Assembly: GCA_016840165.1 (NCBI GenBank)
Contig: JAEOSU010000072.1
Span: 224,001-288,000 of the forward strand
Direction: 5' to 3'
DNA from: Promethearchaeota archaeon
Lineage (GTDB): Archaea; Asgardarchaeota; Lokiarchaeia; Sigyniarchaeales; SOKP01
Length of the DNA: 64,000 bases
A program made the position numbers and the translations under genes. The notes under the pieces were generated by a model. That model had not been told where the DNA came from and ran no database searches. It saw only the letters and a program-made list of their open reading frames with translations. Shown here in pieces: positions 57,992-63,626 of this stretch. Each line of letters starts with the position of its first letter. The first letter of the stretch is position 1.

Positions 57992-58936
57992 TCAGTTTTT
58001 TGTTGAAAATCCATTTTTTAAGCTGAGAATTCGATTTGAGCTTTTATCAAATTGGATGTTTATTGAATAAAAAGAACCAGAAAAATAACTTTCAGAAAGA
58101 AGTAAATAAAGTGTAAATTCTTTCTCGCTTTCTTTAAATTGAGGAAGTATGTATTCCCATTTAAGGAAAAAAGTATATTTTTTACAAATACCTAAGGCTT
58201 GCTTGTAGATTATTTCTTTTTGTGAATTTTTTTCTATCGTTGTCTCATATAAAGTAGTGCTTTTCTCTTTGAATTGTATTTTTTTAGTTAATTTAAATGT
58301 TATTTTATCCTCATTAGATTGGTTTTGATAAACTAAATAGGTAAAAGGAAATATACCTGGTATATAATGGGCATAATTGGGCAATCTTAATTGAACCCAG
58401 ACTTTTGTAATAATTCTATAGGAGAAATAAAAGAGATAAAACCCAAGGATGAAATAAATTATAGGTGAGAAATATAAAGAAGGCCATAAGAAAAATACCA
58501 CAAAATAGAAAAGAATTATTGAACCTGAAACCGTTGCTAAAGCGATATTGATGGCTCTATCGATAAAAAATCTCACTCTTTTTTTATAAAATGGATAAAA
58601 AAGGGGAATTTTAGAGGCAGATAAGAAATCTAATGTTAAATGCAAGCTATAAAATAGAAATCCAACTACCCATACTAAGAGAAAGGGTTCTTGTAAAAGA
58701 AATGATGAAAATATTCCGATTAACCCTGAAAATAAGAAGGCAAAGAAGTAGGAATGAGAAACTCCTTTATGAGAGAGGAGAGGGGTGTCTTTTATTCTTT
58801 TTAATGGCTCTAAGATTATGTCAAAGTCAGCTATCACAGCCATAATAATGCCATACAATACAATACTGAAATTAAATGAATTCAGTGTGAATAAGCTCAA
58901 CAGAATCCCCATTAAAAAATGAGTAAAAAAGTCCAT
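57992..58936 (-). CDS. Membrane metal-dependent hydrolase (YdjM-like)
   Basis: MDFFTH, ADFD, HKGVSHS, HLTLD; start moved to the ATG at 58936. Confidence 0.82.
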   Translation of the reverse strand: MDFFTHFLMGILLSLFTLNSFNFSIVLYGIIMAVIADFDIILEPLKRIKDTPLLSHKGVSHSYFFAFLFSGLIGIFSSFLLQEPFLLVWVVGFLFYSLHLTLDFLSASKIPLFYPFYKKRVRFFIDRAINIALATVSGSIILFYFVVFFLWPSLYFSPIIYFILGFYLFYFSYRIITKVWVQLRLPNYAHYIPGIFPFTYLVYQNQSNEDKITFKLTKKIQFKEKSTTLYETTIEKNSQKEIIYKQALGICKKYTFFLKWEYILPQFKESEKEFTLYLLLSESYFSGSFYSINIQFDKSSNRILSLKNGFSTKN

Positions 58937-59064
58937 ATTCCTTAAATAAGAAATTTTAATGTATATTTTAAGTTTAATATTTTTATTTATAATTTCTATA
59001 ATAATGAGTTTAATCATAAATAAAAATTCTTAATTTACTAAACTTAAAGGAGGCATTCCTTTTG

Positions 59065-59099
59065 TTCCTCTTTCACAAACATTTCTTGAAAGAGTTCAT
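59065..59099 (-). other. SECIS-like or terminator hairpin at the end of the arsenic operon
   Basis: Minus strand AUGAA-CUCUUUCA-AGAAAUGUUUG-UGAAAGAG-GAA; a second hairpin AAAGGA/UCCUUU at 59046-59062. Confidence 0.35.
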
Positions 59100-59220
59100 T
59101 CCAAGCTTAGTTCTATTTCGTTTGAAAATAATGGGCAAAATATTCATTATCTTTACCGAATTTCTTTCTAATCACTATTTTAAAAGAACTTATTTCAAAC
59201 CGATTTTTCACTTTTTCTCA

Positions 59221-59577
59221 TCAACATCCAACATCTGGTTGTAATTGAATATAACTGTCAGGATAGACATTAAATTCAATTTTATCCCGAATGGGATTGA
59301 ATTTTTGCATCAATCCGTTCTCATCTGGAGCATAAGCATAGATTCCAACATCATCATAAATGCTATTTGTTTTAAAATCGACAAGCAATTGCATGTAATT
59401 GTGAATATAGCCCTCATTTATAGGAAAAATTGTTTTTTGTGTATCCTTTGCTTCTATTTTATCAACCATCGCAAGACATTCCAAGAACGTAGCATCTTCT
59501 TTTATTGTAAGATTGTATTTCTTTCCGTGTTGAAGCCCCTTAATCGGTAAACTAATCTCAAAAGTTATTTTTTTAAT
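59221..59577 (-). CDS. Probable ubiquitin-like (beta-grasp, MoaD/ThiS-like) protein ending in Gly-Cys
   Basis: The frame stays open upstream of the tracked TTG (59484) to ATT codons after GGAGG: IKKITFEISLP...YNLTIKEDATFLECLAMVD...YPDSYIQLQPDVGC. This matches the MoaD-like strand/helix pattern. Confidence 0.5.
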   Translation of the reverse strand: MKKITFEISLPIKGLQHGKKYNLTIKEDATFLECLAMVDKIEAKDTQKTIFPINEGYIHNYMQLLVDFKTNSIYDDVGIYAYAPDENGLMQKFNPIRDKIEFNVYPDSYIQLQPDVGC

Positions 59578-59613
59578 AATATTCCCTCCATTGTTTAAAT
59601 TAAATATTTATGC

Positions 59614-59889
59614 TTAAATTAACCCTTTTTGTTTCAATATATTTGGTAATTCTTTTTTTAATAAATATGAAGCTGTAAAGATCCTATTATTATCCACTAC
59701 CGCACATTTACTATGAAGATTTAGATTACGTGCCTCTTCAGAATTCAAGTTTTTAGTATCGTAATCTATATATTTTATATAAGGAGTAAGTGCTTCAAAA
59801 ATTCTATTTACAAATTTGTCCCATTCGCAAGCACACGCATCTAATGGAACATATATATTTACTGTTAATTTTTCATTCGATTTTTCCAT
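59614..59889 (-). CDS. Small thioredoxin-fold/ArsD-like CxC protein
   Basis: VNIYVPLDACACEW followed by a helix, and KCAVVDN; lies within the arsenic operon. Confidence 0.55.
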   Translation of the reverse strand: MEKSNEKLTVNIYVPLDACACEWDKFVNRIFEALTPYIKYIDYDTKNLNSEEARNLNLHSKCAVVDNNRIFTASYLLKKELPNILKQKGLI

Positions 59890-59922
59890 TACTTATTATA
59901 GCACCTTTTTATTATTAACATT

Positions 59923-60246
59923 TTATGGGCAGTTACAGCTTTTTTGTACGCTTTTAGCAACACTTCTAGCATTCCACAAACATCCACAACCTTTCTGCTC
60001 ATTTAAAATAATGGCGTTGACAGGGCAGTTTCGCTGACAAGCACTACATTCTGTGCATAATTCTGGATGGGTTATCTCGAACTTCCCATTCTCCTTTTCG
60101 TGGGGTAATCCAAATGGACAGAGTTCGGCACAAAGCCCACAACCAGTACATTCTGGCTCTTTTATCATTATTTTTATACCTAAAACACGTAAAATGTTAT
60201 CTAAAGAATTTGTATTACAACAAGCGTTCTGATTTATATCTACCAT
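59923..60246 (-). CDS. hgcB-like: HgcB-like 2[4Fe-4S] ferredoxin with Cys-rich termini
   Basis: CTGCGLCAELCP and CTECSACQRNCP, then GCGC and a terminal CNCP; N-terminal CC; directly follows the hgcA-like gene. Confidence 0.75.
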   Translation of the reverse strand: MVDINQNACCNTNSLDNILRVLGIKIMIKEPECTGCGLCAELCPFGLPHEKENGKFEITHPELCTECSACQRNCPVNAIILNEQKGCGCLWNARSVAKSVQKSCNCP

Positions 60247-60266
60247 ATTATCTATTCCTCCTTTTA

Positions 60267-61925
60267 TTATATTATGTTAAAAAAATTAATTATATTTAAT
60301 CCTAAGAACAAAAAAACAATGATTATTAATATTATATTGATTCTTCTGAAAATTGGATACTCTAACTGTATTTCTCTTGGACTAGTCGCCATCGTGTATC
60401 CACTGAAAGACATCGTTGAGAAGAAACTTAGCCAAAAAATAATTACACTCTGTAAAAAAACATAGAGCACTGAGTAATGAATAAACCATGTAAATAGGCT
60501 TAGAATAAAGAGAGTAATACCTCCAAAAAATATTGCTTTTAGAACAAATTTTCTTGTAAATTTTGAAAGTGGGAAGAAAATGGATATTATAGCGTTTGAT
60601 AAAATTACCCAGATTGCCAACTCCCCAACCCAAAATAGATATTTTGCTTTACTTAAAGCTAGAAGTAGGATTAATAGTCCTAAAAGAGGTAACCAAAATA
60701 TTTTGCGAAATAAAAAAGTAATATGTGTTATTCCCGCACGGATTCTTTGAGTAAAGGTAAATTTCGCAAGTTTCATAGAATCTGGTTTTTTAGTAGGTTT
60801 ATTCTTGACATATTCCTTTATTTTATTCGACCATACTGGTCCATATTTTATTTTAAAAGGAAAATTTTTAGGAAGCTGTGGGATTGATATTCCACCTGCA
60901 GATAATTGAGGGAGAATCAGAGTTTTTGTGTTTGTAATCTGTTTAATTCCAGTAGCATTGATTGCATTTAAGAGTTGTATATTTCCAAAGTCTCCGCCTC
61001 TCGCAGCACACCATACATTTATGCCGTTAGAATCTATACATAAAACCCAAGCGTCAATATCTTTTAAATCTCGCATTACTTTTATATATGTATAGTCATA
61101 ATTAGCAGTCACAATAATAGGAGAGTGCTCATCTGGATTTCCTGACCTATAAATACCCGGTTCGATTGCAACTCTATCCACTTGCCCAGTAAATAAACAT
61201 CGGTATATTCTAAACTGAGATTTTATTCCTTTAAAGTTTCGTAATTTCGGTCTATAGTATCCTGGTTCGTTTTCGGTGTTGACTGTAATTTTTTGTAATT
61301 CTATAGCTCTAATAGCCCCATGAGCCCATTCCTTTTTTGTAAGAATTTTGAATCCTATAGAACTTAAAAAACCTAAAAAGTAATTATTAGTATGAGTACC
61401 TCCCAATCTTAATTTCCGTAATTTTTTTTTATACCACCATCTTTTTAACCTAAATTGTATCTTCCAGAAACCTGAAGGGATAAACTCTGCCGCTATTATT
61501 AGCCTTCCATCAGGTTTCAAAGCTCTCCAAACATTTCTCAAAAAAATTTGTTGTTCTAAAGGTTTAAGCTCAGAAAGCATAAATGTACTCAATATAAGAT
61601 CTTGTGAGCTATTGTCAACTTCTAAGTCCTTATAAGAACCGACTTGGTATAAAAGCTCTACTTCTTTTTCAGTTGGATAATTATCCATAGCATATTTAAT
61701 CATATTCAAGTTATTATCTATTGCTTTAACAATATTCTCTTTTAAAGCAGCATTTTTTGCTAAAGTACCAGTGCCACATCCAATATCTAAGATAGTACTG
61801 TTTTTTTTAATCTTTTCCAATATCCACTCTTGAACTTTATTATTTACGCCCTTAGTTAAAGATGTGAATTCTGAATCATATGATTTCGGAACTTCCTCTA
61901 ATTTTTTCATATATACTACTGCCAT
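60267..61925 (-). CDS. hgcA-like: SAM-dependent methyltransferase fused to an HgcA-like corrinoid-binding membrane protein
   Basis: N-terminal ILDIGCGTG...LKPDG. Then EPGIYRSGNPDEHSPIIVTANY, GINVWCAARGG, LILPQLSAGG, YGPV, about 5 TM helices and the MSFSGYTMATS...E motif. Confidence 0.85.
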   Translation of the reverse strand: MAVVYMKKLEEVPKSYDSEFTSLTKGVNNKVQEWILEKIKKNSTILDIGCGTGTLAKNAALKENIVKAIDNNLNMIKYAMDNYPTEKEVELLYQVGSYKDLEVDNSSQDLILSTFMLSELKPLEQQIFLRNVWRALKPDGRLIIAAEFIPSGFWKIQFRLKRWWYKKKLRKLRLGGTHTNNYFLGFLSSIGFKILTKKEWAHGAIRAIELQKITVNTENEPGYYRPKLRNFKGIKSQFRIYRCLFTGQVDRVAIEPGIYRSGNPDEHSPIIVTANYDYTYIKVMRDLKDIDAWVLCIDSNGINVWCAARGGDFGNIQLLNAINATGIKQITNTKTLILPQLSAGGISIPQLPKNFPFKIKYGPVWSNKIKEYVKNKPTKKPDSMKLAKFTFTQRIRAGITHITFLFRKIFWLPLLGLLILLLALSKAKYLFWVGELAIWVILSNAIISIFFPLSKFTRKFVLKAIFFGGITLFILSLFTWFIHYSVLYVFLQSVIIFWLSFFSTMSFSGYTMATSPREIQLEYPIFRRINIILIIIVFLFLGLNIINFFNII

Positions 61926-61936
61926 TCAACACCAAC

Positions 61937-63022
61937 TTATTTGGATTTCCAAAACCCAATTTTTCCCAAATATCTCCCTAAATAGACAATTGAGAGCATA
62001 ATAGGCACTTCCCAGAACAACCCCATGGTAGTACCTAATGCGGCATAAGAACCAATCCCATACATCGCTATTGCTGTTGCGATCGCGATCTCAAAATGAC
62101 TAGACGAACCAATGATGACTGTAATTACTGCCTCTTTATATTTCAATTTAAGCAATTTTGTGACTATAACATTATAACTAACAACAATTACAAATCCCAC
62201 CAATAGGGGAATAGATACTATTAATAAAAGATCAGGATTAGTAATTAGTACATTACCATTTAGCGAAAATAGTACAACAAGAGTTATCAATAAAGCTATA
62301 ATCGATACTTTTCCGACGAATGGACGATATTTTTCATCGAACCAAACTTTACCTTTAGAAGATATTATTAATTTCTTGCTTAAGATCCCCAGAAGCAAAG
62401 GTAAACCAATAAAAAATATTAAAGAAACAAGTAATAGTAAAATATCTATAGGAATATTTTTAATTCCTGATAATAATGAGACCATTCCAACATAGCCAAA
62501 AATTATTGTAATTGTATTAAGACTTGTATTAAGGACATTTTGTTCCTGATTTCCTTTAGCCATCCAACCCCAAACCAAAACCATAGCAGTACAGGGTGAA
62601 CTAGATAATAAAATAATTGCAAATCCCAATTGTCTCACTATTTCTGAATCTCCCGGTAAAAATATGTTTACCATCAACAAACCAACGAAGGGTGCCACTA
62701 ACCAGTTAGAGATTAAAGTTAAAATTATAGGTTTGGGATTCTTTCCAAGTTTTTTTAATTCCGATGCTTGAAGATTTAACATCGCAGGATACATCATTAA
62801 AAATAAACAAATACCAATTGGTATAGAAATGTTTCCAATAGTGAAAGAATTGATTAAAATACTAATTTCTGGAAGAAATTGGGAAATTAAAATCCCTAAG
62901 ATTATGCAAATTCCTACCCAGATTGGTAATAATCTTTCAAAATAGTTGATTTTTCTCGATTTTTGTTTATCTGGTTCATCAAAACTCTCTAATAATTCCT
63001 GTTCAAACTCTTCTTCAGCCAT
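61937..63022 (-). CDS. acr3: Acr3 arsenite efflux transporter
   Basis: FERLLPIWV, MMYPAM, SPCTAMVLVW, SSHFEIAIATAIAMYG, EVPIML. Confidence 0.93.
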   Translation of the reverse strand: MAEEEFEQELLESFDEPDKQKSRKINYFERLLPIWVGICIILGILISQFLPEISILINSFTIGNISIPIGICLFLMMYPAMLNLQASELKKLGKNPKPIILTLISNWLVAPFVGLLMVNIFLPGDSEIVRQLGFAIILLSSSPCTAMVLVWGWMAKGNQEQNVLNTSLNTITIIFGYVGMVSLLSGIKNIPIDILLLLVSLIFFIGLPLLLGILSKKLIISSKGKVWFDEKYRPFVGKVSIIALLITLVVLFSLNGNVLITNPDLLLIVSIPLLVGFVIVVSYNVIVTKLLKLKYKEAVITVIIGSSSHFEIAIATAIAMYGIGSYAALGTTMGLFWEVPIMLSIVYLGRYLGKIGFWKSK

Positions 63023-63128
63023 AATTCTCAAATTATATTTAATGTGTTTTTATTCATATTATTAAATGAAATTGTAATTTCATCTAATTAGAGTCTGAGA
63101 TATAGTTATTTTGGCTCAAATAAAAACA

Positions 63129-63146
63129 TTTCGATTTGAATCGAAA
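63129..63146. promoter_or_regulatory. Candidate ArsR operator
   Basis: Perfect 8-2-8 inverted repeat TTTCGATT-TG-AATCGAAA between the divergent acr3 and arsR genes. Confidence 0.55.
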
Positions 63147-63233
63147 CAAATTTATCTGAATAAATTTTTTATACTTTAATAGCTTCTAGATACATAAGAA
63201 TTTACCAATCCTTAAATAAAATGGTGGTTTATT

Positions 63234-63626
63234 ATTAAAACCAATAGAAAAGCGGAAGTTAAAGAAATGTTATGCTCATGTGATGTATGTGGAGATAGTG
63301 AGACTCTTTTCATTAATTTGCAACAATTAGGAAAAAATCTTAGGTATGATGAGCAAATTAATAAAGCTATTAATTTTTTAAATGTTTTAGGAAATATTGA
63401 AAGACTAATAATTATTAATGTTTTGAAGGAAAAGGATAGATGTGTCTGTGAATTAGAAGCTATTTTAGATAAATCTCAACCATCAATCTCTCACCATTTA
63501 AGGGAATTGGAAAAGCTTAATTTAATCCAAGGATTAAAAAAAGGAAAATTTACCTATTATTCCCTCAATAAGGATGCTTTAATATCTAGTTTAACCTATA
63601 TTATAAACCAATTAAATGTTAAATAA
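63234..63626 (+). CDS. arsR: ArsR/SmtB metalloregulator
   Basis: RCVCELEAILDKSQPSISHHLREL...KKGKFTYYSL; N-terminal CSCDVC. The start is the ATG at 63267 or an ATT at 63234 after GGTGG. Confidence 0.9.
   Translation: MKTNRKAEVKEMLCSCDVCGDSETLFINLQQLGKNLRYDEQINKAINFLNVLGNIERLIIINVLKEKDRCVCELEAILDKSQPSISHHLRELEKLNLIQGLKKGKFTYYSLNKDALISSLTYIINQLNVK

Follow-up and report, generated by a model that had tools for sequence, protein, structure and literature searches.

An Asgard ars operon with a methyltransferase fused to an HgcA-like corrinoid protein and a predicted Cys-Sec-Sec selenoprotein

We examined a 64,000-nucleotide stretch of the genome of a Promethearchaeota archaeon of the Lokiarchaeia (C54:224001-288000; this whole stretch is called the window below) and found in it an operon that places an HgcA-like corrinoid protein among arsenic genes. 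A divergent gene for an ArsR regulator and the arsenite efflux gene acr3 are accompanied by a class I S-adenosylmethionine (SAM) methyltransferase fused to the corrinoid protein, an HgcB-like ferredoxin, a small protein with a CxC motif, and a beta-grasp protein that is predicted to contain two adjacent selenocysteines (Sec) after a cysteine. We read this as the arsenic operon of the organism, controlled by ArsR, which pairs efflux through Acr3 with methyl-transfer machinery of the HgcAB-like/CpaM type that would methylate a metalloid, As or Sb; we put the probability of this reading at roughly 0.45. The composition of the operon suggests B12-dependent arsenic methylation. Its gene content, the identities of its domains, their conservation and the selenoprotein were established by comparison with homologues, as laid out below, and the chemistry is argued from them.

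An ars operon shared by many Asgard genomes

The host genome is an Asgard metagenome-assembled genome of 3.6 Mb, estimated to be 99.7% complete, and the DNA of the window was detected in marine-sediment metagenomes. Five genes run on the minus strand in the order acr3, fusion, ferredoxin, CxC protein and beta-grasp gene, separated by only 11, 20, 33 and 33 nt, and arsR points away from them on the plus strand (Table 1). All the open reading frames (ORFs) listed by an earlier, sequence-only reading of this DNA were recovered at the coordinates it gave, and the gaps, which it had put at ~11-36 nt, span 11-33 nt. Because the arrangement recurs in dozens of species, it lies far beyond chance.

Table 1 Features of the operon and its control region, in window coordinates
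Feature	Position	Strand	Basis
arsR, ArsR/SmtB metalloregulator	63267..63626	+	NF033788 and PF01022
Palindrome TTTCGATT-TG-AATCGAAA, candidate ArsR operator upstream of a TTTATA-type box	63129..63146		Lies in a block conserved across loci
acr3, arsenite efflux permease (predicted)	61937..63031	-	TIGR00832, 257.2 bits, and PF01758; single match in genome
Methyltransferase::HgcA-like fusion, 552 aa	60267..61925	-	NCBIfam and Pfam scans
Fusion, N-terminal class I SAM methyltransferase domain, residues 1-215, CpaM-like	61281..61925	-	NF043040 and Foldseek
Fusion, corrinoid-binding domain, residues ~235-385, cap helix NVWCAARG	60771..61223	-	PF03599 CdhD, NF040863/NF043039
Fusion, HgcA-type membrane domain, residues 391-550, five predicted transmembrane helices	60276..60755	-	AlphaFold2 model
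HgcB-like 2x[4Fe-4S] ferredoxin, 107 aa	59923..60246	-	Best NCBIfam match HgcB
CxC protein, 91 aa	59614..59889	-	Invariant C19/C21; no known family
Beta-grasp Cys-Sec-Sec selenoprotein (predicted), last operon gene	59113..59580	-	Read-through and homologue conservation
SECIS-like element: AUGA, 8-bp helix, A-rich loop, (G/A)AC, second hairpin	59047..59099	-	21-sequence alignment

The acr3 product is predicted to be an arsenite efflux permease. Its TIGR00832 score is below the equivalog cut-off of 282.8 bits; the alignment covers 324 of the 327 profile positions and stands far above any other family. It is the only acr3 of the genome, and no ArsM passes its cut-off anywhere in the genome, the best candidate reaching 82 bits against the 263 required.

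The fusion is an Asgard-wide protein. With a threshold of E <= 1e-20 and partial matches included, 205 of the 400 Asgard genomes searched have a match to it, as do 108 of the 134 genomes of the window's own family. Two closed genomes from the window's order are among the carriers, and in one of them (L074) the gene order is arsR/acr3-fusion-ferredoxin. Other Asgard families carry full-length copies at 30-36% identity, and some genomes encode two. The names borne by the relatives are Promethearchaeota, Hodarchaeota and Hermodarchaeota. We then inspected 90 loci, sampled at one genome per species: acr3 lies directly upstream of the fusion in 42, acr3 and/or arsR is present at no fewer than 56, MarR is present instead in 17, and the others lack both or are truncated where the contig stops, counts that describe the distribution and are no test of it, since related species are not independent. 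The sequence-only reading had proposed a survey of co-occurrence with acr3, and the linkage to ars genes is indeed not peculiar to this contig. In a tree of the fusion proteins, the loci with MarR and those with no regulator form a single derived clade (support 100), the loci with arsR only form a separate clade (97), and the acr3-linked state is distributed across the rest. In distant families the pair of fusion and ferredoxin is constant and its neighbors vary.

The MarR-linked paralogues bring up another reading of the whole system, in which the substrate is organic or halogenated (e.g., halomethanes that are reductively dehalogenated, or a membrane compound that is methylated) and SAM and the ferredoxin serve only to reactivate the cofactor reductively, as in MetH. 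The MFS, cupin and membrane-protein neighbors of these paralogues resemble a response to organic compounds, the neighbors in distant families are unrelated to metals, and heterologously expressed HgcAB was reported to dechlorinate CCl4 in a 2026 preprint (bioRxiv 10.64898/2026.04.26.720869). However, the cysteines that the ferredoxin keeps outside its clusters, and the partners with CxC and Cys-Sec-Sec motifs, speak for a ligand that is thiophilic, and the module is tightly embedded between acr3 and those partners. We consider an organic substrate quite unlikely.

Several arrangements seen in the course of this survey are worth recording. At the MarR-type paralogue loci (L006, L010-L016, L019, L021, L028, L081, L090 and others), a gene pair of a DUF420-like membrane protein and MarR lies on one side, and a gelsolin-repeat-like gene, a cupin and a major facilitator superfamily (MFS) transporter lie on the other; in L089, L098 and L112 the MarR position of the paralogous loci is occupied by an ArsR-like gene. 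Many loci have a DUF166 gene (PF02593) between arsR and acr3 (L003:4143-4898, L004, L005, L008, L020, L025, L084, L091 and others). This gene, a weak match to the NCBIfam "(seleno)protein DfsP" model, is absent from the window operon; in L017, L083 and L136, which have no acr3 there, its neighbors are arsR on one side and the fusion on the other. One locus (L057:780-1178) has a truncated acr3, then a methyltransferase-like fragment 30% identical to the N-terminal domain of the fusion, then a full fusion, an arrangement that suggests a local rearrangement. After the window operon lies a gene for a YdjM-family (PF04307) membrane protein (57992-59017, minus strand), which may or may not share the operon transcript; such a gene follows the operon at several related loci, among them L003-L005, L025, L086 and L103.

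The fusion protein and its place in the HgcA family

The fusion combines three parts, whose boundaries are given in Table 1. In the methyltransferase domain, G49, G51, G53, D70 and D109 are invariant, and the sole cysteine sits within the GCGTG motif, so that the domain has no ArsM-type arsenic site. Direct methylation of arsenic by this domain, in the manner of ArsM, was considered and ruled out, as the domain has no arsenic-binding cysteine. In the corrinoid domain, the cap-helix cysteine, Cys306, is kept in 63/63 homologues, and a sequence search of the Protein Data Bank (PDB) matched only CFeSP (corrinoid iron-sulfur protein) large subunits (2h9a/4c1n), over fusion residues 244-375. An AlphaFold2 model built from a 30-row alignment (pLDDT 89.3, pTM 0.87) folds into a Rossmann methyltransferase domain, a corrinoid domain and five transmembrane helices (predicted at residues 391-423, 427-454, 460-483, 486-510 and 516-550), the cap helix at 304-309 being the only low-confidence stretch of the corrinoid domain. 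When this model was compared with the PDB by Foldseek, a deposited model of HgcAB, 9a0b_A, ranked first (338 columns, E 1e-11), and all other matches were small-molecule SAM methyltransferases. The motifs that had been picked out from the letters are all present in the translation and the model, namely the cap-helix cysteine in NVWCAA (encoded at 61002-61019), PQL, YGPV and the membrane domain. The remark that RG replaces the GK of HgcA was also correct, the window reading NVWCAARG where canonical HgcA reads NVWCAAGK.

To place the protein, we searched its HgcA-like part against 1.84 billion cluster representatives, which returned 959 relatives, and put 121 of these in an unrooted tree with supports from the Shimodaira-Hasegawa-like approximate likelihood ratio test. 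The canonical GK sequences form one clade (support 100). The opposite side (support 95) contains all but one of the 13 methyltransferase-fused rows (12, including the window), three unfused NVWCAARG rows, and 6/6 rows of HgcAB_like, which are forms fused to a C-terminal ferredoxin. The fusion thus groups with the HgcAB_like paralogues, to the exclusion of canonical HgcA. Asgard sequences had already been placed in a "fused" subtree (PMC10083202). The curated profiles give a similar picture. Fusion residues 253-536 match HgcA (NF040863) with 176.3 bits against a cut-off of 275, canonical GK representatives scoring 394-430, and match HgcAB_like (NF043039) with 177.9 bits against a cut-off of 285, over profile positions 15-264 of 350 only, the ferredoxin-fused rows scoring 375-396. 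Residues 3-209 match CpaM (NF043040), the corrinoid protein-associated methyltransferase, with 135.8 bits against a cut-off of 180, which the fused relatives P0137 (211.5) and P0201 (230.6) pass. The sequence-only reading had called the protein a fusion of a methyltransferase with HgcA, to be verified by HgcA profile score and tree. The fusion is real and found across Asgard archaea, but the HgcA identity did not survive either comparison: the window lies below the HgcA cut-off and outside the GK clade, and canonical HgcA membership is ruled out on both grounds.

In the two HgcAB_like loci that we inspected (L078, L079), a separate gene for a class I methyltransferase of 222-224 aa lies directly upstream of HgcAB_like. 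Because of this adjacency, the window encodes the same three-module system as HgcAB_like/CpaM, which NCBI curators had named, fused at a different point. In both, a SAM methyltransferase of class I is combined with a corrinoid domain, which bears a cysteine in its cap helix and leads into an HgcA-type membrane domain, and with a 2x[4Fe-4S] ferredoxin; the HgcA-family tree puts both on one side (95), and neither has the canonical GK in its cap helix. They differ in which module stands alone: HgcAB_like joins the ferredoxin to the corrinoid protein and leaves the methyltransferase separate, whereas in the window the methyltransferase is the fused module and the ferredoxin the separate one. Neither of the two HgcAB_like loci showed an ars context, a CxC protein or a selenoprotein. 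Our literature search turned up no paper on CpaM. With canonical HgcA/HgcB (Pseudodesulfovibrio mercurii ND132), the window system shares a CFeSP-type corrinoid domain, a cap-helix cysteine, five transmembrane helices and a ferredoxin with extra cysteines. Unlike canonical HgcAB, which uses SAM without a methyltransferase domain, the window fusion carries its own, and has RG in place of GK.

The ferredoxin, which follows the fusion in nearly every locus, was rightly described from the sequence as HgcB-like. HgcB (NF040864) is its best NCBIfam match, with 51.2 bits, under the cut-off of 99, and both CxxCxxCxxxCP motifs and the extra cysteines are kept: the eight cluster cysteines are present in 62/62 homologues, C87 and C89 in 61/62, and C106 in 60/62. 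An invariant GCGC follows the second cluster motif, and a CxC/CC tail ends the protein; these are analogous to C73, C94 and C95 of HgcB, which are required for its activity (PMC11588087).

These proteins lead us to propose the following route. The HgcB-like ferredoxin would reduce the corrinoid held at the Cys306 cap-helix domain to Co(I), and the fused class I methyltransferase domain would then place the methyl group of SAM onto Co(I). The resulting methyl-Co(III) would donate its methyl group, at the membrane domain, to a soft metalloid bound by thiols or selenols, most likely As(III) and possibly Sb(III). The ferredoxin's Cys-rich tail would present this metalloid, together with the CxC and Cys-Sec-Sec proteins. 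Unmodified As(III) would be exported by Acr3. Since the methyltransferase and the corrinoid protein are coupled, by fusion or by adjacency, across a deep divergence, loading of cobalt from SAM is the likeliest first half-reaction, and we regard it as well supported by inference. Consistently, purified HgcAB methylates its own Cys-ligated cobalamin with SAM (PMC11588087). The order of methyl transfer itself is what we infer. The sequence-only reading had suggested such a relay from SAM through a corrinoid to a metal or metalloid. Its first leg fits the tie between the SAM methyltransferase and the corrinoid protein, while arsenic as the substrate is suggested by the gene context. A complex prediction with fusion, ferredoxin and beta-grasp domain scored 0.01, which is evidence neither for nor against.

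The relay resembles ArsM in that a class I SAM methyltransferase fold occurs in an ars operon and that the proposed net transfer is from SAM to methyl-As. It differs in that the window protein scores 35.2 bits on the ArsM model (NF008823) against a cut-off of 263, has no As(III)-binding cysteine, and would pass the methyl group through a corrinoid.

The same set of proteins could also work in reverse or mainly in efflux, either demethylating methylarsenicals anaerobically or handing As(III) over to Acr3, with the corrinoid chemistry secondary. The gene for the membrane domain adjoins that of the pump, small Cys/Sec proteins of a chaperone-like kind are at hand, and we know of no anaerobic C-As demethylase, a point we count on the side of this alternative. 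A SAM methyltransferase domain dedicated to the corrinoid domain argues, however, for loading a methyl group and not for unloading one, and the pair of fusion and ferredoxin exists in places that have no acr3. We consider a reverse or efflux role very unlikely.

A predicted Cys-Sec-Sec selenoprotein ends the operon

The last gene of the operon proved to be longer at both ends than the listed ORF, whose 3' end was placed at 59221. Its homologues extend ~38 residues further at the N-terminus; the corresponding stretch of the window is in frame from an ATT codon with GGAGG before it, and the gene probably starts at this ATT, at position 59580. At the other end, a domain of 119 aa ends in PDVGC and is followed by UGA-UGA (59218-59223), a tail of 34 codons and the stop TAG (59113-59115). 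All homologues conserve the peptide that this tail encodes. In a census of 38 distinct homologues, TGA-TGA occupies this position in 34 and TGA-GGN-TGA-TGA in four, and no other stop was found. There are also paralogues of the protein with three Sec (U-G-U-U).

Directly 3' of the true stop lies an element resembling a selenocysteine insertion sequence (SECIS). RNAalifold, run on an alignment of 21 sequences, gave 13 pairs; four show compensatory changes, and none of the sequences breaks helix 1. A scan of the 3' region with Rfam gave no SECIS match. A Lokiarchaeial eSECIS-like element has been described (PMC4989117; PMC11227280), and the window element matches its features, including overlap of the stop codon with the AUGA, which we saw in some loci. 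With the Lokiarchaeial selenoproteins of those studies, the window family shares an element in the 3' untranslated region, at or near the stop, whose core is AUGA...(G/A)A and whose loop is A-rich, and a host with SepSecS and SelB; it differs in its beta-grasp fold, its Cys-Sec-Sec motif and its two or three Sec. PMC11227280 lists seven Asgard selenoprotein families, and the Cys-Sec-Sec beta-grasp family is not among them.

The genome encodes Sec machinery, with SepSecS at 476 bits and SelB at 246 bits; the two genes form a Sec-machinery cluster (C63:14952-16253 and C63:21812-22699), less than 6 kb apart. A tRNA-Sec was not detected, the best RF01852 match reaching 39.9 bits against a threshold of 47; aragorn found none either, a negative that says little because aragorn reported only 11 tRNAs across the whole assembly.

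The domain before the UGA pair was modeled by AlphaFold2 with a pLDDT of 80, and Foldseek matched it to SAMP1 (3po0/4hro, TM-scores of 0.57-0.59) and to other beta-grasp folds. The "ubiquitin-like gene" of the sequence-only reading was therefore right as to the fold, but it is not an ordinary small ORF. An Atlas search with the 87-aa form of the protein found no match. The databases hold 71 clusters of this family, all from Asgard archaea where the source is named and none with a Pfam domain; their entries stop at the first UGA and are labelled hypothetical. Since the longest database member has at most 144 residues, and the read-through form ~155, no entry holds the read-through form. We conclude that, as judged from its codons, its conserved tail and the element behind it, the last gene encodes a previously unannotated Cys-Sec-Sec selenoprotein.

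The start codon of this gene may have parallels elsewhere. In the fusions of L006, L010-L016, L019 and L028, an Ile is found at the position aligned to Met1 of the window fusion, as would be expected if this lineage also used ATT or ATA as starts, and gene callers limited to ATG, GTG and TTG would truncate genes that begin in this way.

The CxC protein, encoded just upstream, keeps C19 and C21 in 26/26 homologues. It matched no Pfam or NCBIfam family, and PDB sequence searches with it and with the last gene gave no matches. A feature search of the Atlas returned clusters of the Thioredoxin_3 type (score 0.90), which we take as a lead only, and the protein is probably thioredoxin-like in fold. 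Both the CxC and the Cys-Sec-Sec proteins were seen only beside fusions in ars-type contexts, defined as acr3, DUF166 or arsR nearby, or a cut contig, and never in MarR or type-B contexts.

The metalloid acceptor and what the operon means

The regulator and the control region bear on the question of what the system acts upon. ArsR scores 70 bits on NF033788, over its cut-off of 55, and also matches PF01022. Its alpha3 CVCE site (C59, C61) is kept in 21/21 homologues, and it has N-terminal cysteines at C3, C5 and C8. The divergent arsR and the palindrome before it, both noted from the letters, are real, and the palindrome may serve as the ArsR operator. The block between arsR and acr3, TCAAATAAAAATATTTCGATtTGAAT...AAAnTTTTATAA...ATAGCTTCTAT, is conserved across loci and includes a TTTATA-type box; only in the window is the dyad perfect. 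An exact palindrome kept as operator across loci was looked for and not found, only the surrounding block being conserved.

We infer As(III) or Sb(III) as the acceptor, from the gene context and the Cys/Sec-rich partners: acr3 is tightly and recurrently joined to the fusion, the ArsR is of the thiolate type, the ferredoxin has conserved cysteines outside its clusters, and the CxC and Cys-Sec-Sec proteins accompany them. A link between hgcAB and arsenic is also reported in bacteria, where ars genes or an ArsR-like regulator adjoin hgcAB (PMC7438021; bioRxiv 10.1101/2022.10.17.512643).

The thiophilic nature of these sites would also suit a broad methylase of soft metals and metalloids (Hg(II), Sb, Bi, Se, Te) or another thiophilic acceptor, placed among ars genes for the convenience of a thiolate-sensing ArsR. 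CVC-site ArsR-like genes flank the fusion even where acr3 is absent: in distant Asgard families, three loci have a co-directional ArsR-like gene with CVCE and an N-terminal cysteine pair. Such CVC and N-terminal cysteine sites are not specific to arsenic in the ArsR/SmtB family (e.g., CadC), a Cys-Sec-Sec motif would bind Hg as well as As, and Hg is what canonical HgcAB methylates. Against this, the gene most tightly joined to the fusion is that of Acr3, a carrier of As(III) and Sb(III), at a distance of 11 nt in the window and recurrently across the loci surveyed (42/90), and the P. furiosus version of fused HgcAB, which shares the fusion's side of the tree, reportedly showed no Hg methylation (Podar 2015, cited by PMC10083202). 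We judge a broad soft-metal methylase unlikely.

Several points weigh against metalloid methylation itself. The window fusion falls below all three curated cut-offs, those of HgcA, HgcAB_like and CpaM. Its methyltransferase domain has no ArsM-type arsenic cysteine, which fits methylation of cobalt and leaves the acceptor site undefined. The fusion and ferredoxin occur without acr3 in the MarR-linked paralogue clade and in distant Asgard families, and the ancestral substrate therefore need not be arsenic. As for the cofactor, the at least 14 proteins with a B12-binding domain that the genome encodes speak in favor, but CobS was not found in it, so the corrinoid would be salvaged or made by an undetected route. 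MAs(III) is more toxic than As(III), and in the operon we saw no gene that would export or detoxify it. Finally, the acceptor is a prediction read from genes.

Part of this picture was known before: HgcAB_like and CpaM as database families, ars genes and ArsR beside bacterial hgcAB, and SAM as the donor of HgcAB. As far as we searched, three elements are new, namely a methyltransferase::HgcA-like fusion that is conserved as a family among Asgard archaea, the position of this fusion within the organism's only ars operon, and the Cys-Sec-Sec beta-grasp selenoprotein with its SECIS-like element. A literature search found no paper describing this cassette.

The native function of HgcAB-type proteins and the route by which their cobalamin is methylated are standing questions, and the SAM donor was identified only in 2024. 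The conserved fusion of a methyltransferase with an HgcA-type protein offers independent genomic support for loading cobalt from SAM, and names the partner domain. Of the gene-level ties between this superfamily and arsenic that we found, the closest is the fusion's location in what is, for many Lokiarchaeia, their sole ars operon. Corrinoid-dependent methylation of arsenic has been proposed since the 1970s for extracts of methanogens, reportedly by McBride and Wolfe in 1971, and the fusion operon is a concrete candidate for such a reaction. A bolder extension, which we think rather unlikely but worth stating, is that the native job of the HgcAB superfamily in these archaea would be corrinoid-dependent, ArsM-independent methylation of As or Sb, with the metalloid delivered by the Cys-Sec-Sec and CxC proteins, and that Hg methylation by canonical HgcAB would be an offshoot of it. 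The Cys-Sec-Sec protein, which from its motif and context is likely a metalloid-binding selenoprotein, would extend the seven Asgard selenoprotein families listed to date.

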